64,000 nucleotides of DNA from an uncultured Prevotellaceae bacterium (GCA_902786565.1 CADACW010000001.1:55151-119150), one strand, 5' to 3'. Positions 24,801 through 55,169 are shown, numbered from the stretch's first letter. The notes: generated by a model from the sequence alone, not told the origin. Program-made: numbers and translations.

Positions 24801-27800
24801 ATGAGAAAACTTAAACTATTATGGCTGCCCTTGCCCTAACGGGGTGGGGTAACTTTGTGCTTGCGCAAACAGACGTGACAAGCACGTACATCACGAATGC
24901 CGGGTTTGACACTGAAAGCGATTTCCAGACAGGAAATGTTGCAACTGGCGATAGTAACCAACGTAAGGCAGTTACGAGTTGGAGCAATACTGGTGGTAAC
25001 ACCTATTCTACTGGTGCTGCTATTGGTTTCGGTACATCAGGACAGATTAATGGTGCCAATCTACCCAGTAACAATGCAGATGGTGCAACTACTGGCGGTG
25101 CTCTGTGTCTCAATGCAGCATGGAAGTCTCAAGTATGGTACTCACAAAACGTAACTTTTCCTGCAGGTAACTATGCCATGAAGTTTATGGTGAACAATGT
25201 AGGAAAGAACGAACAATTTGAAAAAGACCCAGTTATGTTCTCGTTCACGACAACAACTGGAGCAAGTTTTTCTGGTAACGTTCACTCTTATCCTGTCAAT
25301 ACTTGGACAGAACAGACTATTAACTTCGCCCTGGCTACCGAAACAGAAGGTACAATTAAAATTGGTTATAAGTCTACCAACACGGGGTCGGGCAACACTC
25401 CGAAACTTGTGGTTGACTATGTAAAGGCTTTTTACAACTCAAACTATAAGGAAACCCTCCAGTCGACCATCGACCGTGCTACAATTCTTAACGCACGTGC
25501 CTCTGACAGCGACCTTGCTGCTGCCATTACCACGGCTCAGGGTGTTCTCGATGGAGCTGATAACACCGTAGCTTATCAGGCAAACATTGATGAAGCAGTA
25601 ACAACGTTGCGTGCAGCTATCAGCACCGCACAGGCCAAAGTCGTCCTGCTCGAAGGAGAAAATATCACGTTCATATTAGAGAATGCTGACTTCGAGAGCA
25701 GCACACCCGTTACTGTTGGCATCACCACATACGACTACGATGCAGCCACGAACGGTACATCCTTCAGCCGTATGCAGATAGTTGAAGGCTGGACGATTGC
25801 TGAGAATGGCAATGGCAGGTCTGCCGGTATATTCAAGTTTGGAGAGAATTCTTTCTTGGGTAGTGTGGGCACACAATATCAAGCTCCCGCATCTGGCTCT
25901 GCTAGCGGAGAGGAAAAGGCTCTTGGTATCGTAGCAGTATGGCAAGCTTCGGCACAATATAAGCAGAACGTCACTCTGCCTGCAGGCAGCTATATTATCG
26001 AAGTGCCTGTTTACAACACCGCTGGTACCGCAGCATTTAAAAAGAACTTGATAGGCTTTGTGGAGAATGGCGGAACCGAGCATCTGGCTTCTGCCAAAAC
26101 ATACGCTACAGGCAGCTGGATAACAGAAAAAGTTATTTTTGAGCTCGAAAACGAGACATCGGGCTACATGTCTCTGGGTTATACTTCTGATAACAAAGGT
26201 TCTGGAGACATGCCCCACCTGTTTATTGACAACGTGAAGGTGACTTACACCTCGCCTATAGCAGCAGCATATCAGAAGTATCAAGTTGCCTTGGCAGCAG
26301 CTCAGGCAGCCATTGCCAATACTGACTACGACAATGTTACTGGCGATGAGCGCACCGCTCTGCAGAATGCCATTGATGCAACACCTGAGACCACAAAGGA
26401 GGGCTATAACAATGCCGCTGATGCTCTCGACGCAGCTCGTGAGACCTTTACAAACGCCAAGAGTGCATACGATGCCTTTGTTGCTGCAAAAGCAACTACC
26501 GTTCCCGACCTGGCCTATGCAGCAACCGCTAAGAAGACTGCTCTTGAAGAGGCCATTGCAGCTACTGCCACCACTGCAGCTGATGCTAACACGAAGGCTG
26601 CTGCCATCACTACCGACCTTCGCGCCTACTACGAGAGCCACGCTTTGGCTGAGGGTGTTGCTGGTGCTGTAAACATGACCGATAAAATTGTCAATGCCAA
26701 CGATCCTAAGGACAATGAAGGATGGACATGGACAGGCAACAAGAATAATCCTGCCAGCAATGAGTCTTGGACTGATGCCAACGGTACTAACGACCATTCT
26801 TACTTCGACGGTGGCAACTGGAACGGTACTTCATGGACAACGACCATGGAGCAGACTATTGAACTTCCCGCAGGTAAGTACCTGCTCACCGCCAAAGGAC
26901 GAGCCATGACCAGCACCACGCTTACGCTTTCAGTTGGCGAAGTAAATGTAGCTCTGCCCCATATCGGAAGTACCGGCAACGTGTTCGACCGTGGATGGGG
27001 TGACGCTTCTCTTGAATTTACCACCGATGGAACTGCTGCTACTATAAAGGTAACTGCTACTGCTGAACCTACTCATGAGTGGTTCTCTGTTTGTGACTTC
27101 CGTCTCGTACAGTTGGAGTTCAACAGCGATGCATACGCTTCTTCGGCAACTGACTATGCCGACATGAACACAGCCATCACCAACGCCGAGTCAAAAACGC
27201 TCGGTTTCGAGGCAGGTGAATATGCCCCATACCTGAACGTTGAAGCCCTGAAGGCTCTGGCCGAGGCCAAGAAAATAGACCAAGATGCCCAAAACACCAA
27301 TCTTAAAACAACCATCGCCTCGCTTGTTGAGGCCATTAAGACCTTGACAGCAAACACCGCAGAGGTTAATGCTGTAAATACTGCACTCTTTACCTCTGGC
27401 GATGTCACTGGCACCGGCTGGACGCAAACCCAGACTTGGGGCCAAGTCAAGGAAGATGTGTACTCTACCAGCAACGGCACCTTCACCTACGGTGAGGTTG
27501 CAGGCTTTGAAATGCCTCTGAAAGCCAATACAGTTTACAAGCTTACATTCAATCACAGAGCATGGGATGGAAGCAACGCTGAGAACGGCGGTACAGTGTC
27601 TGTGCTTTGTGGAGAGGACGGCCTTGCCGCAACATCTTTCACTGGCCAAGGAACAAATACTACACCTAAGACCGAGACCTTCTACTTCAAGACCGGTGCT
27701 GCTGGTAACTATGTGTTCACGCTCAATGCTCCGAAAGGTCGCCCCACCTTCGGCGGTGTGACCATCCTCAAGGCCGTGGCTGAAGACATCACTATTTCTG

Positions 27801-28405
27801 AGAACGCTACAGCTGCTCCCGCCGAGAATTACGCCAACGTGACGCTGACCCGCACGCTGAAGGCTGACATTTGGAACACATTCTCGGTTCCCTTCGACGC
27901 CGCTATTCCTACTGGATGGACGGTGAAGGAGTTCAACAGTGCAACTGACAATACGCTGAACTTCAAAGATGCATCCGAGATCAAGGCTGGCGTTCCCTAT
28001 CTGGTGAAGACTACAGCTAACGTAGCTAACCCCATCTTCAATGGTGTGATTGTGAAGGCTACCGAGGGTGAGACCATGGGCACGGGTGACTACAAGTTTG
28101 CTGCCCAGATCTTCAACAAGTCTCTGGCTACCGACGGCACCGTGGCTTATCTGGCTACCGACGGCACTATTAAAAAGCTCGCTTCTGGTGGTAGCATCAA
28201 GGGTCTGCGTGCTTACTTCATCGTTCCCGCAACTGCTGCACCTGCCCGTATCGTCTTCATCGACGGCGGCAGCACCACAGGCATTGAGAGCGTGGCAAGC
28301 GAAAACCAAAAGGCCGAGAACGGTGTCTACGACCTGCAGGGCCGCAGCGTGAAGGCCATGAAGAAGGGCCTGTACATCGTCAATGGCAAGAAAGTCGTGA
28401 AGTAA
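24801..28405 (+). CDS. Large secreted multi-module protein with a T9SS-type CTD; apparent -1 frameshift in the signal peptide
   Basis: Three repeated beta-sandwich modules (YITNAGFD, ILENADFE, KIVNAN; ...LPAGxY...) separated by Ala-rich helical spacers. Tail TTGIESV...YDLQGRSV...KKGLYIVNGKKVVK. The ATG at 24801 (MRKLKLL) is out of frame with the long ORF starting at 24821. Confidence 0.8.
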
Positions 28406-28433
28406 TAACCCATTTAAAATCAAATATAGAATT

Positions 28434-28631: not shown

Positions 28632-28673
28632 TCAGGCAGCTACATAGAGCTATCAGCCGTGTGCTGACAAACA

Positions 28674-29491: not shown

Positions 29492-32400
29492 TTATTCTGT
29501 CTTTATTTCTGGGCGGTACCCTGTCTTTCCGGCGATGATGTCGATAACGGTTGCTATGTCGGCCACATCGACGCGGATGTCGCCGTTGACGTCGGCTTTA
29601 TAGTGAGGGCTATGGTTCAACCCGGCCATGACGGTGATGATGGCTGCGATGTCGGCCACGTCGACGCGTCCGTCGCCGTTCACGTCGCCAAGCGTCTCGG
29701 TGGTGCCCAGCTCGTCCTGTACGCCGTGGATGACCATTGTGGGGCCTTCCCATGCGTCGAAGATGGTCATGCCCTCGGCCCTGATGATATAAGCACAGTA
29801 GTTGCCGGGTTTGTAACGCTCGTCGGCAGAGGCTATGCGGTGCCATTCGCCGTCGTCGAACAGCTGGTAGGTGCCAGCCGATGCCCATCCGATGTACTTG
29901 AAATAGCCGCGCAGACAGCCATCATCGTGCGATGGAATCGTGGCGGCCTGGCCTGAGGTGTAGAATGTGGCCTGCGGCAGTGCGGAGGAGACGACGTAGG
30001 GATGGCCGGCTACGGTCTCCGTCACCTGCTCAAGGCAGACACGGCTGTAGTCGCTTGTGAGGCCAGCTATGCGATAGACGTTCACGCCCTCTGGCACGCG
30101 GAAAGCGTATGGCAGACAGACGGTGGTCCAGCCCGACGGCGTGGGCGACTTCTTGAACAAGGGGTGGTAGAGCAGCCGGAAGTCGGTGGCGCACCACCAG
30201 CCTTCGCGCCGGTCGCCGGTGTTGTTGGCGGTGTCGTTGTTGCCATAGCGGCGCCAAGCATTGTCGGTGGCCCCGGCTTTGGAGCCCGTGAACCCGATGG
30301 TCAGTGCGCCACCCTCGGGCACATAGACGGGTGTGGTGGTGAGCGTCTGCCATGCTGACAGCGTGTTGGGAATGTCGAGATAGTCGCGGGTCAAGGCGGG
30401 GCTGACGGCTGTTGTCTCGTCGCCCTCGCCAGCGGTGATGAAGGCATGCTGGTCGCTCAGGCAATAGTGCTGCGTGGAGCCTTTGCACTCAAGCGAGTAG
30501 AGGCCCTCGGCCATGCCTGTGACCTGCTGCGTGACGGTCATGGTCTGTGCTGTGCCCTCGCTGCTGCTCAGTCCGCTCCACCAGGCGTTCCAGCAGGTGA
30601 GGTCCTGCTGCGTGGCCGTGCGCTGGTCGCCGCCGGTGTAGGAGCCCACCTTGGTCTGCCAGGCGGTCTCGTCATCGAAGGCGGGCGCGAGGGGCTGCTT
30701 GGCGGCCTCGGCCATGGTCAAGAAGTTGCCGAGAGCCTGCTGCAGCAGCGTCAGGGCACGGGCTATGTCGGCTGCGGTGCCGGCCGTGGCGGCCTGCTGC
30801 TCGGCGGCCAGCAGGTCTTCGCGCCCCTCGAAGAGCATGCCGTCGACGGCGGCAGCCACGGTGAGCAGCGAGTCGATGACGGACTTCTGCCGCAGGGCCG
30901 TCAGGGCAGCGTTGGTGGCCAGCTCGATGGCCTTGAGCGCAGCCTCGTCGGTGCCCGTCTGCCCAGAGACGGTCTGCATCAGTTCGGTGTTGAGCGCAGG
31001 CAGGCCGGTGTTGTATTGTGTGAACACTTGGGCCCGTCGGCGAGCCTGTGCCACACCGTCGGCAATGGCTTCCTGGCGGGTGTCGAAGAGTCGGTGCAGC
31101 TCAATGTCGCCTATCTGTGCCGTGGCAGCCAGCCATCTGAAGGCCAGCAGTGCCTCGTTGTTGGTGCCGCTGTTGAAGATGCCCTGACGGGTGGCCCAAT
31201 ATGAGCTGTTCTTCAGCGTGAGCCGGTTTTCGTCGGTGGTGTTGCCCTTGGTGCGGACATCCACCTTGACATAGTCGCCGAAGTTCTGTCCAGCCACCTG
31301 GAATAGGTAGTCCTGCCCGGGCTCTATGTCGAAGGCGGTCTTGAGCGCCCCAACATTGTCCTTGCCGTGATTGGAGAAGGCCTGCAGGAAATAGCCGTCG
31401 GTGAGCCGCTTGGGGAACACCTCGAACCAGGGCTGCGCGAGTGGGTTGCCCTGACCGTTGGTCCATCCGTGGAAGCCCATCTCGAAGTTGCCGTTGGCAA
31501 TGATATTGCCGCCGACGTAGCGTGTGCCGGCCTCGGTGACCACGGCCTCGCCGGCCTCCAGGTCTTCGCTGCTGTAGTAGTCGCGTCCGCTGAAGCTGCG
31601 TATGTGCAGACGATAGCGTGTGCCCTCGGTGTAGTCATCGTCGGTGATGATGTAGTCGGCCTCGGCATCCTGCGGGCGTATAGTCTGCCAGGTCTGCCAT
31701 CCGCCGCCGTGCTCCTTGCGCAGCACTTCCATGAGCTGGTTGTACTCGCCATCGTAGTCGTGCCAGGTGATGGTGGCCTTGCCGCCGTCGGTGCTGACGC
31801 GGAAGTCGCGGAACCCGCCGCGCATGGGCGGCGTGTTGGGCACCTTGCCGTAGCTGGCGTTGTAGCCCATGCCGGTGAGCTGCTTGGAATACCACTCGCC
31901 AGCGGGTGTCAGCGCATCATTGACGTAGAGCTTCGACTTTTCGCTACCCTCGCTGTTCCAGTAGAAATAGCGCTCTATGTAGCCCCAGTCGTTGAGCTTG
32001 GTGCAAATGGTCTTGACGGCCCACTCGTTGTCCCACTTCGTCTTGCCGCTCTCGAAGATGCCATTGCTGTTCCACGATGCACCCCATATCCACTCTGAAA
32101 TCCAGATGGGGCGCTTGTACTTGGCCTGCATGGCCGCAATGTTGCTGAAGGCGTCGACCACCCAGTAGCAGTGCAGGTCGACGATGTCGCACCGCCATCC
32201 GCGGGCGTCGATGCTGTCGAGGAAGGTCTTGATGAACCCGGAGCCGTCGCTGTAGTCGCTGCCGTCCCACGACGATGGCGAGCAGAGGCGCATACCGGTG
32301 CGCATGAGGTTCTGCCAGTTGTCGAGGATGGTGGCCAGCGACTGGGGTTTGTCGTCTGACGAGTTGCGGGGCTCGTTGTTGGTCTTCAGGTGGCAGGTCC

Positions 32401-33211
32401 AGGTGGCCTGTCCGCATTTGGCCGACGAGGGGTAGTCCTCATAGAGGTGGTTGGCCACACACTCTACATCGGGCCCCATGTCCTGCCCTTGGTCCCAGCC
32501 GTAGCAGCTGATGACGCCGAGCGCCTTGACGGCATCTGCATTTGTGCTGCTGGCCAGGCCTGCCTTGCCTGCGGTGTTCCACTTGAAGATGCGGTAGGAC
32601 GAGATGGTGCCGTCGAGCAGCTGTGGCAGCGTGGCCATCTCGAGGTCGGCATTGTTGGCAATGAAGCAACGCTGATAGCCATAGCCGCTCTTCTGTGTGG
32701 CGAAGGTCACCATATAGCCGCGCTTCAGGCGGAAGGAGCGTATGCGGTTGTTCAGTTTCTGGTCGGTGAGGGTGACCATGTAGCCGCCATCGTTCTCCAG
32801 TCCGAAGTCGCTGCTCTGCTCTCCGCCAAAGTTCTGCTCGCTATAGACGGTGAGGGGCTTGTCGGTCGAGGCGTAAGGGAGGATGATACAGCCGTGGGAG
32901 CCGTAGAGGCGCACCTGGCAGTTGACGCCATTGCGCGCTACAGCGCCCTTGATCCTGACTCGTGTGGGCAGCAGCGAGGCGATGGCCACCGAGGGCTTGG
33001 TGCGCTCCAGGATGAGCACGGCATGGTCGGTGTTGACGATGTCCACCAGTCCTTCACGGTCAAAGGGCGTATCGGTGTTCACGATGTAGTCTACATCGTC
33101 GGTAAGGGTAACGCTCTCGGCCACCTGGCTCACAGTGGTCTTGGTGTTTGCTGCGGCGGCGGGCAAAAGGAACAAGGCCACTGCGACAAGGATTAATAGT
33201 AGTCTTTTCAT
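29492..33211 (-). CDS. Multimodular GH128-like (Glyco_hydro_cc) glycoside hydrolase with beta/gamma-crystallin-like, FN3-like and CBM-like modules and a C-terminal dockerin-like domain
   Basis: SPI signal. Crystallin-type motifs TVYSEQNFGG / LNNRIRSF / DGTISSYR. GH-A motifs TNNEP, LCSPS, DLHCYW and PIWISEW. IIANGNFE module. Twin Ca-loop repeats GDVNGDGRVDVAD / ADVNGDIRVDVAD. Promoter match at 33259-33266. Confidence 0.75.
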   Translation of the reverse strand: MKRLLLILVAVALFLLPAAAANTKTTVSQVAESVTLTDDVDYIVNTDTPFDREGLVDIVNTDHAVLILERTKPSVAIASLLPTRVRIKGAVARNGVNCQVRLYGSHGCIILPYASTDKPLTVYSEQNFGGEQSSDFGLENDGGYMVTLTDQKLNNRIRSFRLKRGYMVTFATQKSGYGYQRCFIANNADLEMATLPQLLDGTISSYRIFKWNTAGKAGLASSTNADAVKALGVISCYGWDQGQDMGPDVECVANHLYEDYPSSAKCGQATWTCHLKTNNEPRNSSDDKPQSLATILDNWQNLMRTGMRLCSPSSWDGSDYSDGSGFIKTFLDSIDARGWRCDIVDLHCYWVVDAFSNIAAMQAKYKRPIWISEWIWGASWNSNGIFESGKTKWDNEWAVKTICTKLNDWGYIERYFYWNSEGSEKSKLYVNDALTPAGEWYSKQLTGMGYNASYGKVPNTPPMRGGFRDFRVSTDGGKATITWHDYDGEYNQLMEVLRKEHGGGWQTWQTIRPQDAEADYIITDDDYTEGTRYRLHIRSFSGRDYYSSEDLEAGEAVVTEAGTRYVGGNIIANGNFEMGFHGWTNGQGNPLAQPWFEVFPKRLTDGYFLQAFSNHGKDNVGALKTAFDIEPGQDYLFQVAGQNFGDYVKVDVRTKGNTTDENRLTLKNSSYWATRQGIFNSGTNNEALLAFRWLAATAQIGDIELHRLFDTRQEAIADGVAQARRRAQVFTQYNTGLPALNTELMQTVSGQTGTDEAALKAIELATNAALTALRQKSVIDSLLTVAAAVDGMLFEGREDLLAAEQQAATAGTAADIARALTLLQQALGNFLTMAEAAKQPLAPAFDDETAWQTKVGSYTGGDQRTATQQDLTCWNAWWSGLSSSEGTAQTMTVTQQVTGMAEGLYSLECKGSTQHYCLSDQHAFITAGEGDETTAVSPALTRDYLDIPNTLSAWQTLTTTPVYVPEGGALTIGFTGSKAGATDNAWRRYGNNDTANNTGDRREGWWCATDFRLLYHPLFKKSPTPSGWTTVCLPYAFRVPEGVNVYRIAGLTSDYSRVCLEQVTETVAGHPYVVSSALPQATFYTSGQAATIPSHDDGCLRGYFKYIGWASAGTYQLFDDGEWHRIASADERYKPGNYCAYIIRAEGMTIFDAWEGPTMVIHGVQDELGTTETLGDVNGDGRVDVADIAAIITVMAGLNHSPHYKADVNGDIRVDVADIATVIDIIAGKTGYRPEIKTE

Positions 33212-36213: not shown

Positions 36214-36243
36214 AACTGTTATCTATTAACTAAAAACTATGAA

Positions 36244-39200: not shown

Positions 39201-39543
39201 GGTGAGCAGTGAGGGCCGAAGGGATGGCCACTTGCAACGACAAGAACTCAGGGGCATGGACATACAGCGCAGTAGCTGCTGTGGGCACCTTGATGATGAA
39301 CGAGCCGTCGTCGCCAGTCATCGCCGTATAGTTGTCGTAGCCTAAGGCTTGCACAATGACGCCGGGCAGAGGAGCCTTCGTGGCAGCGTCGATGCACGTT
39401 CCGCTGACTTCCATGGTGGGATAGACAGGGCCTCTCTTAACTGGCAGCTTTCTTGCTACTATAGTTTCCTCTTCATCGTCCTGCGCCAAAACCGTGGAGC
39501 TGAACGAGAGAGACAAAATGACAAATAATAAACTTATCCTCAT
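36244..39543 (-). CDS. susC: SusC/RagA TonB-dependent transporter (second pair)
   Basis: [58 protein letters not shown], C-terminal LGVKINL. Confidence 0.92.
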   Translation of the reverse strand: [1099 protein letters not shown]

Positions 39544-39598
39544 ATTCGATTGAAATGATAAATGACAATTGATAAATGATAAACTTCAGGAATCGAAG

Positions 39599-41335: not shown

Positions 41336-41372
41336 AATCCTTAGTTCTTGATTCTATATTTTCGTAAGCATC

Positions 41373-43436: not shown

Positions 43437-43462
43437 AACAATGAACTATTAACTGTAAACTA

Positions 43463-45262: not shown

Positions 45263-45317
45263 ATTCATAAGATTTGAGTGTTGTAAGTTGAGATTTGATG
45301 TGTCACTCATGACTCGG

Positions 45318-48300
45318 TTAGAATCCCACTTGGATATTGAGCGTCATTGACTTGGAGCGTGGCGTCTGCGAGTTGTCGTAGGCAATGCCCCAGGAACCGG
45401 GTGCGTGCTCGGGGTCGGTGCCGCTATAGGTGCTCCAGACGAAGAGGTTCTGGCCGGAGAGGCTCAGCGTGAGCCGTCGAAGCCCGAGGGGCTTGAGCAT
45501 CTTCTGCTTGAACGAGTAGGACAGCTGGATGTAGCTCATGCGCACAAAGGAGGCATCCTCCACGTAGCGGTCGCTGCCGAGCCAGTTGTAGCCAGTGTCG
45601 AACATGGCACGTGGTATCTCGGTGACGTCGCCGTTCTTGCGCCAGCGCCAGTTGACGGCAGAGCTTTGGTTGTAGGCATTGAACATCTCTTCGAGGCCCA
45701 TCTTTGCCGCGTTGACAATCTTGATGCCCTGACGGTAGCTGAAGCTGGTTCTGAGAGACCAGTCGGAATACTGCAGGTTGAAGCCGAAGCCTCCATTCAG
45801 ATGGGGGTTGGAGTTGCCGAGGTAGACAATGTCGAGCGAGTTGATCTGTCCGTCGTTGTTCACGTCGTCATAGATGGCATCACCGCCCTGGAACCTGTAG
45901 GTGGAAGAGCCGCTGGCACTATTGAAGTTGTAGACCATGCGGATGGGCATTCCCTTGGAGTCCATCATCACATTTCCCTCGTTGTCGATGGCGATGGGAG
46001 CCGTCTTGCCAGAGGCGAGGAAGGTGTTGTTGATATAGTCACGCAGCTGTTCGCCGGTCCAGTTGTTGCGGTTCTTCATATTAGTCAGGTATTCGTAGGT
46101 GTACTGGTAGACGCCCTTGTAGCGCAATCCGTAGATGGAGCCGAGGGGGTTGCCCTTCTGAATACGGTTCAGATACTGGCCGCGCTTGCTGGAGTCCCAC
46201 TCGCTGTTGATGCTTTCGAGGGTGCTTTCGTCCATATCGACAATCTCGTTGAAGTTTTGCGAGATGTTGAAGTTGGCGCTCAGTGAGAACTTGCCTATCT
46301 TGATGAGCTTGTTGAGGTTCACATTCAGCTCCCAACCCTTGTTGGTCATCTCGCCCACATTGGCCCATGAGAGCGACGAGAATCCTGCCGTGGAGGGGAT
46401 GCGTACACCCGACATCAGCAGGTCTTTGGTGCGCTTGAAATAGTAGTTGAAGTCGCCGGTGATGCGGTCGTTGAGGAATCCGAAGTCACCACCAATATTA
46501 TACTGTGTGGTACGTTCCCATTTCAGTTCGTTCAGCTGCAGACCCTCCAAATAGGTGACGCTCTTGGTGTCGGAGATGCTGCCGTAGACACCGCTGGTGT
46601 TGTACTTGGCATACTGCAGATACTGCGAGCCGGGCTGACGGCCTACAATACCCCACGATGGACGGAAGGAGAGCATAGACAGCCATTTCTTCGACCAATT
46701 CATGAAAGGCTCGTCGCTGATGTTCCATCGAGCGGAGACGCCGGGGAACCATCCCCATTTCTTAGAGTCGCCGAACTTAGTGGTACCGTCAGCGCGCATG
46801 GAGAAGTCAAGGGCATATTTTGACTTGTAGGAGAAGTGGCCGGAATAGGTCATCGACATGTTGCGCCACTGCCCGTTGCCCGTGCTCATGGTTTCGAGCT
46901 GCGTGTCGACGGTAGGCGACGTGGTGCCGCTGGGCGCATTCTTGTTGGCCACGGTCTGGCTGTTGTCGTTGCCGGTGGTCATCTCCCATCGGGCCAGCAT
47001 GGTGGCATAGAAATCCTCATTTTTAAAATGGGGATTAAACGTCAAAGTGTGGCGAGTGGTGAAGGCGAGCGAGTTGTAGTCGTAGACCTGCGAGCGGTTA
47101 TAATTCTCGTTCTGCCAGCCATCGGTAGCCAGAGAGCCCGGCCAGTACTTAGGCTCGCTCTTTGAGAAGATGTCCATATAGACCAGTCCTGTGTAGTTGA
47201 GCTGTGTCTTATGGTCATCCTTGCCCAGGAGATAGTAGTCGATACGCATTTCGGGCGAGATACGGTAGGTATGCTCCTTACGCCACGCCAACTCGGCAAT
47301 GGCCACGGGGTTGCCCAAAGACCGGATGCTGCCCAACTGCTTAGACGAGGTGCCTGCTGCCGACGAACCTGCCTCATTGCTGGCACCTTCGGGGAGCATG
47401 ATGTAATACTCGCCGGTGTTCGAACCGTCGGCGTTCTGCCGATAGACGCTCATGTTCGGAGCCATCTGCTGGGCGCGGCCCAGGATTCTGTCGTCGTAGT
47501 TGCGGTTGTTGCTGGTATAGGTCAGCGGGAAGGTGGTGCGGAAGGTGATGCGGTCGGACACAAAGTAGTCCAAGGCCAGCTTTGTGGAGAAGCGGTCCAG
47601 GGTCTGCTTGATGATGGTGCCGTTCTGGTGGTCATAACCGGCGGAGACGCGGAAGTTGGCCTTCTCGCCACCACCGGTGATTGTGACGTAGTGGTACTGC
47701 GAGATGCCCAGCTGCTGCACTTCGTCCACCCAGTCGGTGTTGTTGTTCCAGTTTTCAAACTCGGCCCAGGAGCGGTTGTAGTTGATCTCGTTGATGTTGG
47801 TCGTTGCCGATACTGCCTGTGCGGGATTGTAATACATCTCCTTCAGCATCATGGTGTAGTCGTCGCCGTTCAGCAGATTGTAGCCCTTTGGCTGCCACGA
47901 TGCCTGCAGGCGCAGCGAGTAGTCCACACGGGTGGCACCGCGTGCGCCGCGCTTGGTGCGGATGGAGATGACACCGTTAGCACCACGCGAACCCCAGATG
48001 GCTGTGGCAGCAGCATCCTTCAGCACGTCGATGGCCTCGATGTCGGAAGGGTTGACGGAGAGCAGCGAGGCGTATGTCTCCTCGTTGGCGTTCTGGAAGT
48101 CGAAGTTCTCGTCGGGGTTGTCAAAGATATTGCCATCGACGACGATGAGCGGCTCTGCACTGCCGTTGATACTGGTGACACCACGGAGGCGCATCGACGT
48201 TCCGGCACCGAGGTTACCTGAGTTGGACACAATGTCAAGACCGGCTATCTGGCCCTGCAGGGCTTCGTCGGCAGAGGTGAAGGCGAGACCTTCCACCTGC

Positions 48301-48704
48301 GACATATTGAATGTCTGTGCTGCCACCGACACCTCACGCTCGGGAATGGCGAGGCCACCACTGTTGAACTTTTTCTTGGCGGTGACGGTGACCTCCTTTA
48401 TCTGGGTGGCATCCTGCAGCTTCACATTGAAGGAGGTGCGGGTGCCGATGGGCAGTGTCACGGTCTTGTAGCCCACGTAACTGACGCGGAGCTTGTTCTT
48501 AGTGTTCTTCACCGACATGGTGAAGTTTCCGTTGAAGTCTGTCTGCGCGTTGGAAACAATACGATTGTTGCCGTCTATCTCCACCACGTTACACATCATC
48601 ACCGGCCCCATCTCGTCGGTGACGGTTCCCGACACGCGGGCTGTCTGCGCTACGCTTACCAGCCAGGAACTGCAAAGGAACAATATACTTAGTAGTATTC
48701 GCAT
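45318..48704 (-). CDS. susC: SusC/RagA TonB-dependent transporter (first pair)
   Basis: N-terminal CarboxypepD_reg-like domain, EPLIVVDG, VNPSDIEAIDVLKDAAATAIWGSRGANGVI, SDRYVEDASFVR, C-terminal IQVGF. Confidence 0.95.
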   Translation of the reverse strand: MRILLSILFLCSSWLVSVAQTARVSGTVTDEMGPVMMCNVVEIDGNNRIVSNAQTDFNGNFTMSVKNTKNKLRVSYVGYKTVTLPIGTRTSFNVKLQDATQIKEVTVTAKKKFNSGGLAIPEREVSVAAQTFNMSQVEGLAFTSADEALQGQIAGLDIVSNSGNLGAGTSMRLRGVTSINGSAEPLIVVDGNIFDNPDENFDFQNANEETYASLLSVNPSDIEAIDVLKDAAATAIWGSRGANGVISIRTKRGARGATRVDYSLRLQASWQPKGYNLLNGDDYTMMLKEMYYNPAQAVSATTNINEINYNRSWAEFENWNNNTDWVDEVQQLGISQYHYVTITGGGEKANFRVSAGYDHQNGTIIKQTLDRFSTKLALDYFVSDRITFRTTFPLTYTSNNRNYDDRILGRAQQMAPNMSVYRQNADGSNTGEYYIMLPEGASNEAGSSAAGTSSKQLGSIRSLGNPVAIAELAWRKEHTYRISPEMRIDYYLLGKDDHKTQLNYTGLVYMDIFSKSEPKYWPGSLATDGWQNENYNRSQVYDYNSLAFTTRHTLTFNPHFKNEDFYATMLARWEMTTGNDNSQTVANKNAPSGTTSPTVDTQLETMSTGNGQWRNMSMTYSGHFSYKSKYALDFSMRADGTTKFGDSKKWGWFPGVSARWNISDEPFMNWSKKWLSMLSFRPSWGIVGRQPGSQYLQYAKYNTSGVYGSISDTKSVTYLEGLQLNELKWERTTQYNIGGDFGFLNDRITGDFNYYFKRTKDLLMSGVRIPSTAGFSSLSWANVGEMTNKGWELNVNLNKLIKIGKFSLSANFNISQNFNEIVDMDESTLESINSEWDSSKRGQYLNRIQKGNPLGSIYGLRYKGVYQYTYEYLTNMKNRNNWTGEQLRDYINNTFLASGKTAPIAIDNEGNVMMDSKGMPIRMVYNFNSASGSSTYRFQGGDAIYDDVNNDGQINSLDIVYLGNSNPHLNGGFGFNLQYSDWSLRTSFSYRQGIKIVNAAKMGLEEMFNAYNQSSAVNWRWRKNGDVTEIPRAMFDTGYNWLGSDRYVEDASFVRMSYIQLSYSFKQKMLKPLGLRRLTLSLSGQNLFVWSTYSGTDPEHAPGSWGIAYDNSQTPRSKSMTLNIQVGF

Positions 48705-48747
48705 TTGACTAATTGACTTTTTACTATTATACTATTTTACTATTATG

Positions 48748-48798
48748 CCATTTTACTATCATTCTATTAGCCGTAACCATCGTCTAATAGTAAAATGG
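48748..48798. other. Stem-loop in the intergenic region upstream of susC
   Basis: CCATTTTACTAT (48748-48759) / ATAGTAAAATGG (48787-48798), next to an 8-bp-period TACTATT run. Confidence 0.55.
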
Positions 48799-48799
48799 T

Positions 48800-51706
48800 T
48801 CATTCGCCCGATTCAGCAATTGGGTCGTAACGACGGTAGAGCTTCTCGTCGTACAGCCGACGGTAGGCAGCCAGCTTCTGACGGGCGTTGCTGCCAGTCC
48901 AGAGGGCGTCGTAACGGTCGGTGTCGCTATGTGTGGAGAAGGGCGTGCTGATTTGGTGCACCACAGCGAAGGAAGAGGTGTTGATGGCGTGGGTGCTCTT
49001 GTTGAGCACATAGTCACGTGCCATCCTGTTCACCACTTTCGTCGTGCTGGCGGCATCAATCTCTATCTGGTGGCCGCGCTTGTCGGTCACGGTAATCCGC
49101 CCGCTGCCACCACCTACATTGAGTTTCACTCGTATGCCGAGGGTGTCGCTGCAGGCTGTGGGATAGGCGCCGGCATCGACGACATTGTCGGCATATACGC
49201 TGTTGTCCTGGAAATGGTAACGTATGAAGGCATTGATTTCCTCCACCATGGCAAGGGCCTTGTTGCGGGCAGCCTCAACCTCCTCGCTGATGCTGCCGGC
49301 GGCACGCTGCTCCTCAAGCAAATCGTTGTACTGGTCGTAGAGCGCCTTGATGTCGCTCCAGCGGGGCAGTCCGCGGTCGTAGGCCAGCTTCATGGCGTCG
49401 TTGTCGGGAGCATAGACTGTATAGTTGTAGGAGTTGAAGTAGTTCACGTTGTCGGTGAGTCCTCCCTTTGCAGCGAAGGTGTGATAGGCATCCATGCGTT
49501 TCTTGTTGGTCACGCTGTTCACCTCGGCCAACTTGTCGCTGGCGAATCCCATAATGTCGTCCATGTCAAAGTCGCTGCAGAGGGCGAGGAACTCCGAGAA
49601 GCGGTCTTCGTCTGCCTGGAGCACACTGAGCACCGACTGCTGCGGGGCCTGTATCACACGGTCAATGGCATAGGCAGTGCCGTTCTTCTGGTTATAGACC
49701 TGGGTGATGTTCGACATCGGGATTTGCGACTCGCCGCCTACGGCTATCTGGGCACCGCTGGCCACGACACCACCGTTGAAGTAGACCTCGCCGCCATGCT
49801 TGGTCTTGTAATAGCGGTTGGCACCGAGTTTCTCTCCCTTGGGGAGCACTATGGTATGGTAGTTAAGGATATCGGTGAGCTGCGAGCGGAAACTGGCCGT
49901 CGGCACCATGCCGATGGAATCGCCCACCTCACCGGTCAGCGGGTCGTACTTCCATTGCGAACAGTAGACGTATGGAGAGCGCGGCGAGTAGTAGAACTTC
50001 AGGGCTCGGGGCTGGTCTTCTCCCAAATATGCCGGGTCTACATAGAAGCGCTGGAAAGCATCGTCGGTGGGGATGAAGAAAGCGTAGTTGGCGCTCATGG
50101 CCAGCAGGTAGGCATAGTAGTTCAGACCCAGGCTCAAGGGCGACGACGAGGCGCTGCCGTCGTGCACAGCCACGTTCATCACACGCATGTTGCTGCTCAG
50201 TGTCACCGGGGCTGAGACGGCGATGAGCGAAGGCGGTGCGAACATCTTGTTGAGCATATAAGCCACGCCGTTGTTGGCTATCTTCACATCGTAGGTGCCA
50301 TCGCTCTTGCGGTTGAGCACGTCAAGTGAAAGGCCCATGGGATCGCTGGCCTCGTCCATCACATGGCCGAACTTTGAGGGCACCGTTCCCACAAACGAGG
50401 TCTGCATGAGGTTGTTCACCAGCTGCTGCACGTTCTGCAGGGGGATGGAGTCGATGTTTTCGGCCAGATGGTCGGCGGTGTTGGGTTGTTTGCCGAAGGT
50501 GTTGATCAGGAACTCTCCCTCGCCACCGGGCAGGAAATAGTGCTGCAGAGCCTCGTCGGTGGGCACGAAGATGGCAGCAATGTCGGTGCTGGCACTGGCC
50601 GTACCGTTCTGTCCGAAGGTGTTCCATCCTGGGTCGAACTTCAGCTTGTACTGTGCCGGTGTGCCGTTGGGGTCGTATGACAGGGCTGCCTGTCCTTGCG
50701 ACAGTTCGCTCATATAGCGTTTCTGGAAGATGCTGTCAATCAGTTCCAAACCGTTGGCTTGTGCGTAGTCATTATAGTTATTGGTAGTTGCAGCATTATA
50801 ATAAGGTGCAGAGAATCGGTCGATCATACGGCTGAAGAGGTTGCTCTCACCACTGGTGCGAATGACCTCGGCCAGGTTTCCGGGAGACAGCAACACATCC
50901 TGCATCTGATGAATGTAGCCGTTCTTGCAGGTCACGTCGGCGTGGATGATCTTGTTGCGGAAGATGTAGGCCGAGTGCTGCGTGGCGTCGTAGGGCGAGC
51001 CGGTGAGCACCTCGAAGTCGCTGACGCCACCCTCGGTGGCCACCTGGGTGGAAATGTTGTTGGCCGTCATTTGCTCCTCGGTGAAGTGCACCATCATGGG
51101 CCTGGTGGCATCCATCACGAAATGTATGCCCTTGTCGGCATACTTGGCCCAGTAGCTGTTGTTCTGCGGCAGCTGGTCGATGCCCCGCATATGGGTGATG
51201 GTGTCGATGACGTTGGCACCGGTGGTGTGTTTCAGGGCTTGGCCCTGGGTCACGGCGGTGCTTCCGTTGCTGATGTTCGAGAGCATCTCCACAAGGAGTG
51301 CGTTGTCGAGCATGGAGCCATAGAGCAACTGGCGTTTCATGGCCGGAGTGAGGTCCTCGTACTTAGTGACGCCCCAGGAGTTGTTTTGGAAGAATCGCTC
51401 GAAGGCTTCGTCGTTGGCGGGGAACACCGTCTTCGAACCAGTCTTTCCGAGGGTTTCGGCGTAGTTCAGGTCGTCAATGAGGCGTACATAGTTTTTGAAG
51501 GTTCCCTCCAGCACTTCGCCAGCATCGCTGTTCAAGCCCTCCGGAGTGCTGAGGGCCTCGTAGATGCTGCCTCCGAGCCAGGCGGGATAGTTGTCCTCGT
51601 CGTCCAGATGGTAGTCGTCGGTGCAGGCAGTGACACCGCAGAGGGCAACGGCTGCTATAGAGGTTAGCAGTCTCTCTCGTGCCAAACAAAGATAATGTCT
51701 ATTCAT
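48800..51706 (-). CDS. Large multi-FAS1 lipoprotein
   Basis: Lipobox VTAC. Repeated FAS1 motifs TVFPANDEAF, CKNGYIHQM, AIFVPTDEAL, AFFIPTDDAF, KNGTAYAIDRVI and YTVYAPDNDAM. Confidence 0.82.
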   Translation of the reverse strand: MNRHYLCLARERLLTSIAAVALCGVTACTDDYHLDDEDNYPAWLGGSIYEALSTPEGLNSDAGEVLEGTFKNYVRLIDDLNYAETLGKTGSKTVFPANDEAFERFFQNNSWGVTKYEDLTPAMKRQLLYGSMLDNALLVEMLSNISNGSTAVTQGQALKHTTGANVIDTITHMRGIDQLPQNNSYWAKYADKGIHFVMDATRPMMVHFTEEQMTANNISTQVATEGGVSDFEVLTGSPYDATQHSAYIFRNKIIHADVTCKNGYIHQMQDVLLSPGNLAEVIRTSGESNLFSRMIDRFSAPYYNAATTNNYNDYAQANGLELIDSIFQKRYMSELSQGQAALSYDPNGTPAQYKLKFDPGWNTFGQNGTASASTDIAAIFVPTDEALQHYFLPGGEGEFLINTFGKQPNTADHLAENIDSIPLQNVQQLVNNLMQTSFVGTVPSKFGHVMDEASDPMGLSLDVLNRKSDGTYDVKIANNGVAYMLNKMFAPPSLIAVSAPVTLSSNMRVMNVAVHDGSASSSPLSLGLNYYAYLLAMSANYAFFIPTDDAFQRFYVDPAYLGEDQPRALKFYYSPRSPYVYCSQWKYDPLTGEVGDSIGMVPTASFRSQLTDILNYHTIVLPKGEKLGANRYYKTKHGGEVYFNGGVVASGAQIAVGGESQIPMSNITQVYNQKNGTAYAIDRVIQAPQQSVLSVLQADEDRFSEFLALCSDFDMDDIMGFASDKLAEVNSVTNKKRMDAYHTFAAKGGLTDNVNYFNSYNYTVYAPDNDAMKLAYDRGLPRWSDIKALYDQYNDLLEEQRAAGSISEEVEAARNKALAMVEEINAFIRYHFQDNSVYADNVVDAGAYPTACSDTLGIRVKLNVGGGSGRITVTDKRGHQIEIDAASTTKVVNRMARDYVLNKSTHAINTSSFAVVHQISTPFSTHSDTDRYDALWTGSNARQKLAAYRRLYDEKLYRRYDPIAESGE

Positions 51707-51977: not shown

Positions 51978-54900
51978 TTAGAAATTTGCTCTTCTTGATT
52001 TGGAAGCCATGATGGTGAGAACGGCAGAGATGTCGGCTACGTCGACAGTATTGTCATTGTTCACGTCGGCCTGCTCAATACTGGTTTTCGAGGTGTCGCC
52101 AGACATCACCGTCAGGATGCTCGAGATATCGGCCACATCAGTACTGCCGTCGCCATTGACGTCACCATTCATCTCGCCCTCGCCAAGCGGTCCGGGCCAA
52201 CCCTCGTTGTTGCCAAGCTCGACAAGGGTGAGGGTCCAGCCACCCACGCTGTACCAGTTGCCGGCAAACACCTTCTCGGTCTGCAGCTCCTCGCTACCAG
52301 TGGCGGTTCCGATAAGCAGCTGATGGTTGTCCACCACTACATTGACGAGCTCCTGGTGCTGGAAGCCACGGCCATTGCCGCTGTTGGCACCATAGATGCT
52401 GGAATAGTAGGCATAAGTGGGATCGTCTTCAGCCAGTCCGCCTTCAATCTTTGCCTTTGCCTCTTCCCAGATGGGACCATGAGTGTCGCTGGCCACCTGC
52501 TCTACGCCTTCGTCGTCAATCCATGTGTTCATAGGAATCTCGGTGAAGGTCTTCACGCCGTCCTCTGCGGGAGCGGTGAACACGTAGGCACCCTCGGCCG
52601 GTGTGCGGGTATAGACGCCCACGGTGTAGGTTCCGTTGGGCAGACCAGTCACGAGCTGCGTGGCGATATAGCCCACGAGGCCGTTGGCATTGTAGCTGTC
52701 GAAATAGCGTGTGCCGCTGCCGTCGAACCACTGTCCGCCGCCAGTGTTGGTGTTACCGTTACCCTTGTTGAAGGTCCATCCATCCTCAGCCTCGGCATTG
52801 GGGTTCTTGATGAAGGCAGTATAGTCGGTAGCGCCCTCAGTCTCCCAGATGAGCTGCTTGTTGGCGTCGAAGATGACAGCCGTCAGTTCGGCAACAAAAG
52901 CGTTCACAGTTTCAGCGTCCTTCATCTCGCTCATCAGGGCTTCCTTCTGCTTGGCCATCAGCTCCTCAATGCTGGTCTTGGCGGTGCCTTCAGAAGCGGC
53001 GGCCACGGCGGCGGCATTGTTGTAAGCGGGAACGTATGTGTTGACGTAGTTCTTCAGCAGGTTCACGCGAGCATCAATATCCTTGTAGGTAGCCTCAGAG
53101 CCGGTGAGCCAGATGTAGGTCTGCTCATAGGCATACTGGACAATCTCCTTGGCGGCGCCATACTCGTCGCCCTCAAGGGCGGCGGCCACGGTGGGCAGGG
53201 TCTTGCCGTCCATCATATACTCCTCGTACTTAGCCTCACTGGCCTTTGCCTCGTCCATAGCGTTGCTCAGAGCTGTGAGCGACTCGATGTCAGAGCTGTT
53301 GGCGGCATTGGCTGCGGCCTCCAGAGCGGCCTTGTCGGCAGCAAAGTGCATAGTGGCGGCCAGAGCCTTGGCATCGGCAACGGTCTGGTTGACAACCTGG
53401 TCGAGTGCACCGGGAGCGGCCTCGCCGAGATACCACAGTTTGAAATTGGTGGCGCAGAACCATCCGGCAGAAGCATTGCCATTGCCGGTACCCTCGGCAC
53501 CGATGGTGAGCTTGCCGTCGATGACGAGCACCTTGTCGCTGGTCAGCGTCTCCCAGCCGTCAGCATCCCATCCCTCAATGGTCATCACGGGCGACTCGCT
53601 CTTCTGGACAGTACTCTTGGCGAAGGTGTGCTGGTTGGTGATGTAGCCAGCCTGGGTGATCATGTCGGCCGACACCTTATAGAGACCGTTAGGCAGGCCG
53701 GTGAGGTCCTGGCTGATGCTCACGGTCTGGGTGAAGCCGCTGGCCCAAGCGTTCCAGCAGGTCAGGCCCTGAGTGTAGTTGGTGCGCTGGTCGCCGCTGG
53801 TGAAGCTGCCCATGTACCATCCGTCACTGGTCAGGTACTGGCTGGGATCTTCCACATCGTAGGTGTAGCCTTCTGCGGCATTGCCCTTAGGCTCGTACTG
53901 AGGCTGGATGAACCACGGGTTCTTCACGAGGTAGGTCCAGTCGGCGGGACTCTCCTCGCTTGCCGTCTGCGACTGATAGTAGGCCAGGATGGCTGCCTCA
54001 ATCTGTGCGACAAGCCCCATCAGGGTGTCGGCATTGCCATTTCCCCTTGAGCCAGTGAGCTCCTCGTATTTGGTCATAAGGTCATTCAGGCCGGGGAAGT
54101 TGGTAGTGCTCAACAGGTTGTCAATCTTGGCCAGGGCGGCATCGATGGCGTCCACCTGGGCAATGGCCTGCTGGAATTTAGCAATGTCGGCATTGGCCTT
54201 CTTCAGTGCTGTGGTCATGCTTTCCACGGTGCCGCCAATCTCGCCGTCAATCTCGGTGATGCAGTCGCTCATTTCCGACACGAGTCCGCTCAGACCCAGG
54301 TCAGAGGCCTGGGTGATGAGTTCGTTGATGTCGCCAATAGCGGCAGAGAGGTCGCTGCTGAGCAGTTCCTCCTCGTCAGCCTCACCAATCTTGTAGAGCT
54401 TGATGCCGTCGATGCAGAGGAAGGGGTTGCTGCCCGAACCGCCAGACGACTCAAAGCCGAACTCCATGGTAAAGTCGGCCGTGGGGGTGAACTCGATGGT
54501 ATGCTTGGTCCACTCAGTGTTGCTAAAACCTGTCTCATCGGCCCAGACATCCTTGCGGCAGGTCACCTTTGAGAGGTTCTTACCGTTGGTTCCAGAGGGG
54601 TTGACGTTGATGGCCCAATACTCCAGACGATACTGTGCGCAGGGCAGGTCGACCGTCTGCTTGTAGACAGCACGTCCGCCCCAACCGGCACGCATATAGA
54701 CAAAGCCGACATTGTCAGAGCCGCTGGCCACATCAGGGCGAGAGGGGGTCTCAAGGAAGGTGGTACCATTGTCGGCAATGGGTATTGCCTGTGACTCCAA
54801 ATCATAGGGTATCGTTCCAAAATACACCCATTCGCACTTAGGATAGTCCTGATTGGTCTCGATGGTCCATCCACTGACTTGTCCGATAAAGCCGTTGACA

Positions 54901-55169
54901 GCTTTTTCCCACAGACCGTCAGCTCTGGGCTTGCCATCACATGTGCCATCGGGGTGGGCATATACAGTCTTGTCTTCTGCTTCCCACGCAAAACTACGGC
55001 CTATTTTGGTCGTATTTTTCACAATTTCCTTCATCGAGCCATCCGCCTGGAAGGTGAGGTCCTGGTCGAAACCCGCATTGGCAATGAGGTGGGTCACGTC
55101 CTCTTCAGTCTGTGCCAGCATAGGAACTGCCATAAACGCACTGACTGCAAATAGTAATAGTCTCTTCAT
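51978..55169 (-). CDS. Secreted multi-module protein with a C-terminal dockerin-like domain; no catalytic domain recognised
   Basis: SPI signal. Three modules (LIANAGFD, LVKNPWF, FIKNPNAE; LPNGxY) with helical spacers. Twin Ca-loops GDVNGDGSTDVAD / ADVNNDNTVDVAD. Promoter match at 55238-55245. Confidence 0.8.
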   Translation of the reverse strand: MKRLLLFAVSAFMAVPMLAQTEEDVTHLIANAGFDQDLTFQADGSMKEIVKNTTKIGRSFAWEAEDKTVYAHPDGTCDGKPRADGLWEKAVNGFIGQVSGWTIETNQDYPKCEWVYFGTIPYDLESQAIPIADNGTTFLETPSRPDVASGSDNVGFVYMRAGWGGRAVYKQTVDLPCAQYRLEYWAINVNPSGTNGKNLSKVTCRKDVWADETGFSNTEWTKHTIEFTPTADFTMEFGFESSGGSGSNPFLCIDGIKLYKIGEADEEELLSSDLSAAIGDINELITQASDLGLSGLVSEMSDCITEIDGEIGGTVESMTTALKKANADIAKFQQAIAQVDAIDAALAKIDNLLSTTNFPGLNDLMTKYEELTGSRGNGNADTLMGLVAQIEAAILAYYQSQTASEESPADWTYLVKNPWFIQPQYEPKGNAAEGYTYDVEDPSQYLTSDGWYMGSFTSGDQRTNYTQGLTCWNAWASGFTQTVSISQDLTGLPNGLYKVSADMITQAGYITNQHTFAKSTVQKSESPVMTIEGWDADGWETLTSDKVLVIDGKLTIGAEGTGNGNASAGWFCATNFKLWYLGEAAPGALDQVVNQTVADAKALAATMHFAADKAALEAAANAANSSDIESLTALSNAMDEAKASEAKYEEYMMDGKTLPTVAAALEGDEYGAAKEIVQYAYEQTYIWLTGSEATYKDIDARVNLLKNYVNTYVPAYNNAAAVAAASEGTAKTSIEELMAKQKEALMSEMKDAETVNAFVAELTAVIFDANKQLIWETEGATDYTAFIKNPNAEAEDGWTFNKGNGNTNTGGGQWFDGSGTRYFDSYNANGLVGYIATQLVTGLPNGTYTVGVYTRTPAEGAYVFTAPAEDGVKTFTEIPMNTWIDDEGVEQVASDTHGPIWEEAKAKIEGGLAEDDPTYAYYSSIYGANSGNGRGFQHQELVNVVVDNHQLLIGTATGSEELQTEKVFAGNWYSVGGWTLTLVELGNNEGWPGPLGEGEMNGDVNGDGSTDVADISSILTVMSGDTSKTSIEQADVNNDNTVDVADISAVLTIMASKSRRANF

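Follow-up and report, generated by a model that had tools for sequence, protein, structure and literature searches.

A 64-kb segment of Bacteroidales chromosome from an uncultured Prevotellaceae bacterium (GCA_902786565.1, CADACW010000001.1:55151-119150; all 64,000 nucleotides are referred to here as the window, with positions counted from its first letter) encodes two large secreted proteins, the glycoside hydrolase family 128 (GH128) protein B and the protein J, which end in type-I dockerins at the place where their counterparts in most Prevotella carry a short C-terminal domain (CTD) of the secretion system known as type IX (T9SS). Both belong to a polysaccharide utilization locus (PUL), of which J is the head gene. 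In our reading, to which we assign a probability of roughly 0.65, direct covalent anchoring by the T9SS has been replaced for these proteins by cohesin-dockerin docking onto a cohesin that is itself anchored by the T9SS. We place the window in a cattle-rumen Prevotella. The named homologues of the window's genes are all proteins of "Prevotella sp." metagenome-assembled genomes (MAGs), and the window sequence was matched in bovine gut and rumen metagenomes by word-index look-up.

Dockerins at the junction of the short T9SS tail

The proteins concerned, including a third protein, A, that keeps a T9SS tail, are made up as follows (ORF, open reading frame; HMM, hidden Markov model).

24821..28405, plus strand: protein A, 1194 aa (ORF; module profile matches; short CTD)
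27797..28264, plus strand: pre-CTD beta domain of A, aa 993-1148 (cassette HMM; AlphaFold2)
28274..28402, plus strand: short T9SS CTD of A, aa 1152-1194 (TGIESV..NGVYDLQGRSV..KGLYIVNGKKVVK)
29492..33211, minus strand: protein B, 1239 aa (ORF, Pfam, structure match, profiles)
31919..32380, minus strand: GH128 catalytic core of B, aa 278-431 (phmmer, E 1e-10 to 6UAQ/6UFL)
30167..30664, minus strand: module of B homologous to J module 2 (BLASTP, J_m2 profile; GDQRT..CWNAW and WWCATDFRL)
29987..30136, minus strand: pre-dockerin beta domain of B, aa 1026-1075, the HMM-supported part (cassette HMM)
29519..29692, minus strand: type-I dockerin of B, aa 1174-1231, two F-hand repeats, V-A (PF00404)
51978..55169, minus strand: protein J, 1063 aa, head gene of the PUL (ORF, Pfam, profiles)
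54384..55106, minus strand: J module 1, aa 22-262, homologous to A modules 1 and 2 (profile)
53415..53939, minus strand: J module 2, aa 411-585, GDQRT..CWNAW and WFCATNFKL, shared with B (BLASTP, profile)
51981..52166, minus strand: type-I dockerin of J, aa 1002-1063, V-A in both repeats, conserved ..RRANF end (PF00404, orthologue tails)

J is comprised of a signal peptidase I (SPI) signal (AQ|T), three modules resembling carbohydrate-binding modules (CBMs) with helical spacers between them, and the dockerin. B is arranged as an SPI signal, the GH128 domain, a CBM4_9-like module, a helical spacer, a J-type module, a beta domain and the dockerin. The terminal dockerins had been recognised in an earlier reading made from the sequence alone (the sequence-only reading), and PF00404 confirms them: with the cut-off at 22.9, B scores 34.1 bits (aa 1174-1224) and J scores 24.1 bits (aa 1002-1050), and the C-terminal fragment of B alone reaches 36.9 bits. 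The V-A pair reported there at Ca-loop positions 10-11 is likewise present, with all four loops reading D-x-N-x-D-x-x-x-D-V-A-D (DVNGDGRVDVAD and DVNGDIRVDVAD in B; DVNGDGSTDVAD and DVNNDNTVDVAD in J). An alignment of 23 orthologue dockerins shows no variation in the Ca ligands (loop positions 1, 3, 5, 9, and 12) or in the V-A pair.

Dockerin and T9SS tail are interchangeable, as had been proposed, because the orthologues of J and B carry either one at a single junction, joined within a few residues of the predicted PorU site. Among the best 120 homologues of J, 110 (50–59 % identical) end in a short CTD and nine (66–100 %) in a dockerin, and the one remaining protein (P0111) carries a dockerin, a domain of ~110 aa termed domain X and a short CTD. 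The junction "GW.GP" is alike in all of these forms, with the dockerin starting within a few residues of the site at which PorU is predicted to cut. The nine dockerin forms of J constitute one clade nested among the CTD forms, from which P0111 stands apart. For B, at least 22 of 120 homologues bear a dockerin, in at least three clades; they comprise a close clade (81–98 %), a distant clade (~48–50 %) and a few odd types, and the other homologues have short-CTD-like tails after the junction "W[DE]G.TM.I.G". The two proteins switch together, with dockerins on both in the window as well as the P0007/P0125 genome, and CTDs on both in L006, L007 and several contig-matched pairs. Judged by these C-termini, the replacement of the CTD by a dockerin at the cleavage-site junction is real and recurrent.

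The T9SS tail that is exchanged is of a short type. PF18962 and TIGR04183 gave no match to the tails of A, of the J orthologues or of the giant proteins of locus L001 (see below) even at E ≤ 10, and PF18962 matched none of 72 proteins with the C-terminal cassette of A. A canonical seven-strand type A CTD was rejected for the A tail, to which PF18962 and TIGR04183 are blind. A short-CTD profile matches this tail with an E-value of 4e-13. The A tail (T|GIESV..VYDLQGRSV..GLYIV..KKVVK) and the tails of the J orthologues (GIExV..GIYTLxGxK..GLNIVV..KVLVK) fit the short CTD of P. intermedia in length, in the cleavage motif with Ile at +2, and in motifs B, D, and E. Of the 80 T9SS cargo proteins of P. 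intermedia, 48 have short CTDs of 43–55 aa, which form three strands and are cleaved at a PT/GI consensus with conserved Ile, motif B being Y, G and a basic residue, D being GxY or GxN followed by Ile, and E a basic residue (K); mass spectrometry has demonstrated their cleavage and glycosylation of the cargo at the new C-terminus (Ye et al. 2025, PMC11969387). A 45-aa tail profile matches only the extreme C-termini of a few crystallised rumen and gut enzymes (8BBL, 4KCA, and 7JVI). The earlier description of A as ending in a pre-CTD beta domain and a CTD thus holds for the domain and, in the form of a 43-aa Prevotella short CTD, for the tail, but not for a canonical CTD.

The gene for a T9SS plug protein (PF17116, T9SS_plug_1st; L092 5852-7099) is located ~2 kb (2–3 kb) to the left of window position 1, immediately upstream of the valyl-tRNA synthetase gene, on a contig that is 99.95 % identical to window 1-12618. 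Within the window, a serpin of ~620 aa (9413-11284, minus strand; PF00079, E 1e-91) also has a short T9SS CTD at its end (profile E 3e-7) and is predicted to be a T9SS-secreted protease inhibitor. The organism probably has a T9SS, to judge from the plug gene near the window and the short CTDs on A and on the serpin.

The dockerin is not confined to this locus. A profile of the 23 V-A dockerins, searched against species-representative genomes, gave at least 219 confirmed sites, and the best 79 loci come from five rumen Prevotella MAGs only. Dockerin ORFs number 106 in these loci; most start with an SPI-type signal peptide, and in 93 the dockerin is at the extreme C-terminus. Of the 68 ORFs scanned, 57 pass Pfam Dockerin_1 at 1e-5. 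The passengers include BspA-type leucine-rich repeats (LRRs), C10 and M6 peptidases, GH43, pectate and rhamnogalacturonan lyases, CotH and endonuclease I, which by domain content is the repertoire usually found on T9SS cargo. Short-CTD proteins coexist with dockerin proteins in the same loci. RGIG5135 carries a B orthologue (83 %) with an A neighbour. Internal dockerins were also observed (L034 3982-6633, L055 6398-9103, L084 1755-3056, L080 5872-6633, and L066 5791-6795), followed by a domain of ~150–200 aa that ends in ..VRPVR or ..VRPAR.

Cohesin-like adaptors and T9SS-tailed anchors

The window itself contains no cohesin, in agreement with the sequence-only reading: PF00963 gave no match on the ORFs of 1–13.5 kb and 23.4–63.8 kb. 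The dockerin-rich genomes encode probable divergent cohesins. Four proteins of 369–1269 aa, referred to here as adaptors, consist of two tandem domains of ~140 aa followed by a dockerin. The first domain of one of them (L063_1963_3915) matches PF00963 with 24.6 bits, the gathering cut-off (GA) being 24.1, and an E-value of 3e-5 over model positions 3–133 of 139, and four sister adaptor domains score 12–19 bits over the whole model. Cohesin is the commonest family among the 15 domains scanned, one of which reaches the Pfam cut-off. A further 11 proteins of only 223–235 aa, the anchors, are composed of an SPI signal, one cohesin-like domain of ~160 aa and a short CTD. Six of these 11 (in L062, L058, L088, and L089) are positioned directly downstream of a dockerin gene, some as tandem pairs. 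Alignment of the anchors with the adaptor cohesins by hhalign gives 97.3 % with an E-value of 2e-11 over 124 columns, and an HMM built from the adaptors only matches the anchors at 1e-11 to 2e-6; the anchors would accordingly be linked to cohesin transitively, through the adaptor domains. Domain X of L001 and P0111, compared with the adaptors in the same way (88.5 %), falls in the same family. The top PDB matches, which are weak, are cohesins: 5N5P, 1TYJ/2Y3N, and NagJ, the last of these for the X domain of L001.

Locus L001 (292-13083) encodes three adjacent giant proteins of 1488, 1246, and 1327 aa with a near-identical C-terminal cassette, made up of a dockerin with V-T at positions 10-11, the cohesin-like domain X and a short CTD. 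On the cell surface, such proteins might in principle link up into chains. A single-sequence AlphaFold2 model of the cassette reached a predicted local distance difference test score (pLDDT) of 43. A word-indexed protein search with domain X returned 20 close fragments, a result that says nothing on its distribution. P0393-P0397 are built as in L001: the chain has its dockerin upstream of both a cohesin-like domain and an ordinary short CTD.

A predicted anchor is also found beside the window, in a 99 %-identical strain. A strain contig (L093) that encodes the window's alanyl-tRNA synthetase is 98.6–99.0 % identical to window 49313-64000 and runs past the right end. On this contig the H+-pyrophosphatase is followed by a 230-aa anchor at window-equivalent ~65114-65806 (minus strand), ~1.1 kb past the end, which matches the anchor HMM over its full length at 1e-38, the adaptor-cohesin HMM at 1.5e-6 and the short CTD at 5e-11. 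The anchor gene is preceded by that of a 925-aa dockerin protein with CBM-like modules, the two together occupying L093 3339-6930 (~65114-68705, minus strand). On the evidence of this contig, the species of the window has a predicted cohesin-type, T9SS-tailed protein ~10 kb from J. A comparison, at 80 % likeness, of contigs from the window-bearing runs with the anchor locus of RGIG5135 gave matches to short, conserved parts of dockerins and CTDs only, which does not show the presence of that locus in the window's strain.

Proposed docking and competing explanations

The arrangement described above suggests the following sequence of events. In most Prevotella, J and B are T9SS cargo with a short CTD of 43–55 aa which, by analogy with P. 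intermedia, would bind PorV and carry the protein through the T9SS translocon, after which PorU would cut off the tail and the new C-terminus would be linked to lipopolysaccharide (LPS). In the lineage of the window, a type-I dockerin has taken the place of the tail at the cleavage-site junction. The small cohesin-CTD anchors would be exported by the T9SS and fixed covalently to LPS via PorU, and the dockerin-tagged proteins, including B and J, would dock onto them in a Ca-dependent manner, either directly or via the two-cohesin adaptors. Covalent anchoring of each protein would in this way give way to a modular, exchangeable display. The binding between the two modules and the surface location of the complex are what we infer from the domain architecture.

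Several observations weigh against this docking scheme. To our knowledge there is no route by which dockerin-only proteins cross the outer membrane of Bacteroidota, so that an essential step is missing. The assignment of the cohesins goes back to one domain just above the Pfam cut-off and a chain of profile-profile comparisons: the anchors alone gave no match to Pfam and PDB, and the alignment of the Prevotella cohesins with three C. thermocellum cohesins is weak (hhalign probability of 3 %). The Prevotella-cohesin HMMs gave no match at E ≤ 1 in the six frames of the window, and the anchor nearest to J is known from a 99 %-identical strain and not from the window's own DNA. The 925-aa dockerin protein next to this anchor has V-S in its first repeat and V-A in its second. 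The numbers are also uneven, with at most two cohesins per protein in ~1 Mb of loci compared with dozens of dockerins.

The pairs of dockerin gene and anchor gene are compatible with assembly in the periplasm and co-export. It is possible, but in our view doubtful, that dockerin proteins hitch-hike, binding the cohesin of the anchor in the periplasm and crossing the T9SS translocon as a folded complex, in which case the pair would serve both as secretion adaptor and as surface tether. The position of the dockerin exactly at the place of the CTD, and at the extreme C-terminus in 93 of 106 proteins, could instead point to the dockerin itself as an alternative export or sorting tag, recognised by the T9SS or another outer-membrane route with no need of a cohesin; this would also suit proteins that otherwise have no known signal for outer-membrane translocation and whose passenger domains are typical of secreted and surface proteins. 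Such a role is nevertheless unlikely. Firmicutes dockerins are C-terminal as well, the dockerins upstream of a cohesin-like domain and CTD in L001 and P0393-P0397 must there be passengers and not signals, candidate cohesin partners are present in the same genomes, and the helical, Ca-binding dockerin is unlike the beta-strand CTD that binds PorV (PMC11969387). Besides such a tag, the sequence-only reading had put forward a non-cohesin partner, with the FAS1 lipoproteins and SusD as candidates to check. B and J do lie in a PUL with three surface-type FAS1 lipoproteins, and no cohesin lies inside the window, but the same FAS1 and SusC/D genes are equally present in lineages with CTD forms of J and B, this PUL encodes only a minority of the dockerin proteins in these genomes, and candidate cohesin-type partners exist, both as divergent cohesins and as small cohesin/short-CTD proteins, one of them close to J in the 99 % strain. 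Docking onto FAS1 or SusD is therefore very improbable. That reading had named a standard cohesin scaffoldin elsewhere as the finding that would overturn it; a cohesin elsewhere is essentially what was found, although of a non-standard kind.

In Bacteroidota, the periplasm is the default location of SPI proteins that have no CTD, and the dockerin forms might accordingly remain in the periplasm or in vesicle lumens after loss of the CTD, with the dockerin as a relic or in an unrelated Ca-binding role. The invariance of the Ca ligands and the V-A pair in the 23 aligned dockerins, the high copy number (dozens in each genome, on passengers of adhesin type or able to degrade polymers), and the co-located cohesin genes make this decidedly unlikely. 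Dockerins were inferred to have been transferred between Firmicutes and Bacteroidetes in a study of rumen metagenomes, which reported few cohesins from Bacteroidetes (PMC6487960), as might be expected if the dockerins docked across species onto cellulosomes or amylosomes of rumen Firmicutes (Ruminococcus) after lysis or vesicle release. We consider this scarcely probable, as these genomes contain a cohesin family of their own with Prevotella-specific T9SS tails, and dockerins of the V-A type show very little variation among Prevotella.

Assembly through cohesins and dockerins is considered a strategy of Gram-positive bacteria (and fungi), and the accepted picture of Bacteroidota is one of reliance on PULs built around lipoproteins and on T9SS cargo tagged with a CTD. 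Cohesins are reported from Firmicutes only in surveys that use standard models (e.g. PMC9177762), and Prevotella dockerins have been left as unexplained orphans (PMC6487960). The system proposed here, in which cargo docks onto T9SS-anchored cohesins, would by analogy work like Ruminococcus cohesin-dockerin anchoring, with a single anchoring cohesin and adaptors, and is not a cellulosome: no multi-cohesin, CBM-bearing scaffoldin was seen in ~1 Mb of loci and the cargo is not cellulase-centred. Like the cellulosomes and amylosomes of Firmicutes (R. flavefaciens ScaE, the R. bromii amylosome, and single-cohesin anchoring in R. albus), it has C-terminal type-I dockerins on many secreted proteins, small cohesin anchors and adaptors with a dockerin; the anchor is fixed covalently to the envelope in Firmicutes and would be so here, by a reaction of the sortase type. 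Unlike in those systems, the host is a diderm member of the Bacteroidota whose components have an outer membrane to cross, anchoring is predicted to depend on a T9SS short CTD (PorU, LPS) and not on LPXTG or SLH, the cohesins are highly divergent with at most two per protein, and the cargo is broad (adhesins, peptidases, nucleases, hemicellulases, and pectinases) and not a cellulase set.

The short-CTD cargo of P. intermedia includes the same passenger types (LRR, peptidases, and Fn3-type adhesins), but neither dockerins nor cohesins were described for it (Ye et al. 2025, PMC11969387), whereas here the CTD is replaced on many cargo proteins and kept on small cohesin proteins. The orphan dockerins of rumen Prevotella and Bacteroides are alike in module kind and habitat, with 7.2 % of rumen-metagenome dockerins being Prevotella-like (Bensoussan et al. 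2017, PMC6487960); that study had almost no Bacteroidetes cohesins and tested no Prevotella pair, in contrast to the candidate partner family, the T9SS link and the swap identified here. The NagJ cohesin and NagH FIVAR-dockerin of C. perfringens resemble the present case in assembling non-cellulolytic glycosidases and in having FIVAR-like helical spacers beside the modules, but belong to a secreted toxin complex of a Gram-positive host with no outer membrane or T9SS. "Ca. Paraporphyromonas polyenzymogenes" is similarly a rumen member of the Bacteroidales in which display of large multi-domain carbohydrate-active enzymes depends on the T9SS and not on lipoproteins; its enzymes, however, bear their own CTDs and no cohesin-dockerin layer has been described (PMC5831590). 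In the papers searched on dockerins or cohesins with T9SS, Prevotella or Bacteroidota, we found no description of a CTD-to-dockerin swap or of a T9SS-tailed cohesin.

The locus provides a natural experiment, with the same PUL proteins bearing either a T9SS tail or a dockerin and a predicted T9SS-tailed cohesin adjacent. If the docking scheme is true, abundant rumen Prevotella would display enzymes, adhesins and peptidases through an exchangeable, T9SS-anchored plug-and-socket layer, extracellular proteins would need to be predicted differently in these genomes, how the T9SS recognises and co-exports its substrates would become a testable question, and a new orthogonal cohesin-dockerin pair from a diderm host would be usable for engineering. 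If dockerin proteins do hitch-hike on the anchors, this would represent a piggy-back form of type IX secretion, in what would be the first diderm bacterium with a cohesin-dockerin display system.

Shared modules, protein A and the surrounding genes

The repeated module that the sequence-only reading had described in A, B, and J is shared above chance by profile and BLASTP, though the copies are unevenly related. The motif GDQRT..LTCWNAW was located at 30581-30631 in B and 53745-53795 in J, and residues 855-1015 of B are 36 % identical to residues 453-580 of J (BLASTP, E 6e-20). Module profiles of the J orthologues match A 76-204 (2e-10), A 356-474 (8e-8), and B 850-986 (9e-16), the scoring being done at Z=1e5, where none of the reversed-sequence decoys fell below E~10. 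The pre-terminal motifs also proved to be in place, WNTFSVPF/AGVPYLV in A and WTTVCLPY/AGHPYVV in B. The claimed resemblance of the domain preceding the dockerin in B to that preceding the CTD in A is borne out by the cassette HMM at E ~1e-4, but as distant kinship only; the same HMM matches nearly every B orthologue at the position corresponding to B 1026-1075. The GH128 core of B, an enzyme of beta-1,3-glucanase type, contains the NEP acid/base motif (aa 279-281) and the SEW nucleophile motif, with E373 aligned to the residue mutated from E to Q in 6UFL. PF11790 is recorded on many B orthologues, and Pfam gave no direct match on B itself.

Protein A consists of CBM-like beta modules with Ala-rich helical spacers between them, followed by the beta domain and the short T9SS CTD, and a weak FIVAR match was seen in the Pfam scan. 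By its architecture it is predicted to be ordinary T9SS cargo that keeps the usual cassette. An A orthologue, 48 % identical, adjoins the B orthologue in L002 and L072, and the dockerin lineage conserves a convergent gene for an A-like cassette protein next to B. The start of A had been placed at 24801; an ATG is present there, but it is out of frame with the ORF, which begins at 24821. The homologues P0241, P0244, and P0247 start with MRKLKLF/L, a conserved signal-peptide start, and the equivalent MRKLKLL leader of the window (24801-24839) is out of frame and reaches a stop after 12 codons. The long ORF from the ATG at 24821 reads MAALALTGWGNFVLAQ|TDV, without a charged n-region. Compared with the homologues, the break in the leader frame looks like the loss of 1 nt in a T run (CTATT-ATGG). 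Contigs from three independent DNA runs and from one RNA run agree on this sequence, so an isolated assembly error is not the cause.

The beta domain and tail of A form a generic cassette, which was found in 10,086 clusters (50 % identity) at E ≤ 1e-3, always at the extreme C-terminus and on adhesin-type passengers (BspA-LRR, Big_2, Cleaved_Adhesin and others). No Pfam family covers the beta domain. Its AlphaFold2 model is confident (pLDDT 89), and a Foldseek comparison of this model with the PDB gave no fold match, the best E-value being 0.03 with a TM-score below 0.3. The domain was rejected as a dockerin partner, as it has no cohesin fold match and the cassette is generic to thousands of cargo proteins. 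It represents a very large (>10,000 clusters), uncharacterised family.

The remaining genes of the PUL and its immediate surroundings are listed below.

34321..51706, minus strand: PUL core (Pfam hits; gene order the same in relatives)
34321-36213, minus strand: SusD (Pfam)
36244-39543, minus strand: SusC (Pfam)
39599-41335 and 41373-43436, minus strand: FAS1 lipoproteins (Pfam)
43463-45310, minus strand: SusD (Pfam)
45318-48704, minus strand: SusC (Pfam)
48800-51706, minus strand: FAS1 lipoprotein (Pfam)
55290-55661, minus strand: AraC-type helix-turn-helix (HTH) ORF, 123 aa (Pfam, HTH_18)
56030..59065, plus strand: GH2-family glycosidase, divergent from the PUL (Pfam)

Two adjacent SusC/SusD pairs together with the GH128 and GH2 enzymes identify the locus as a PUL. 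Read along the minus strand, the order is J, a FAS1 lipoprotein, SusC, SusD, two FAS1 lipoproteins, SusC, and SusD, after which come a plus-strand gene of the 23S-rRNA intervening-sequence protein (IVP) family and then B, with A convergent to B. At the other end, J is flanked by the GH2 gene and the small AraC-type ORF. The latter, situated between J and GH2, encodes an HTH_18 domain and nothing else, is kept in the 99 % strain (L093) and may be a stand-alone regulator or the leftover of a larger sensor-regulator. The 23S-rRNA intervening-sequence family protein (33448-34212, plus strand), between SusD and B, has a coiled-coil tail; in a related genome (L002/L003) the matching place between SusD and the B orthologue is occupied by a GH16 glucanase gene.

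The metatranscriptome gave small contigs on A and B only, one RNA contig spanning 24804-25228 in A. The A region is lower in G+C than its surroundings (0.48 compared with ~0.55), and a RhuM-family fragment is present at 23478-23888. Upstream of A, at 24554-24623, three tandem 22-nt units are arranged as nested palindromes (GAGATAAAAGGCACTTATCTC). The assembler depth over these units is ~500–2000x, compared with ~32x in the flanks, and one contig path links 24575 to 29293, which together indicate a high-copy repeat element upstream of A. The intergenic region between A and B contains a 58-nt direct repeat (28674-28731 and 29211-29268, 95 % identical) with a G+C-rich hairpin inside it (GGGCGCAG...CTGCGCCC), and an AT-rich inverted repeat of 41 nt is found at 29347-29431.

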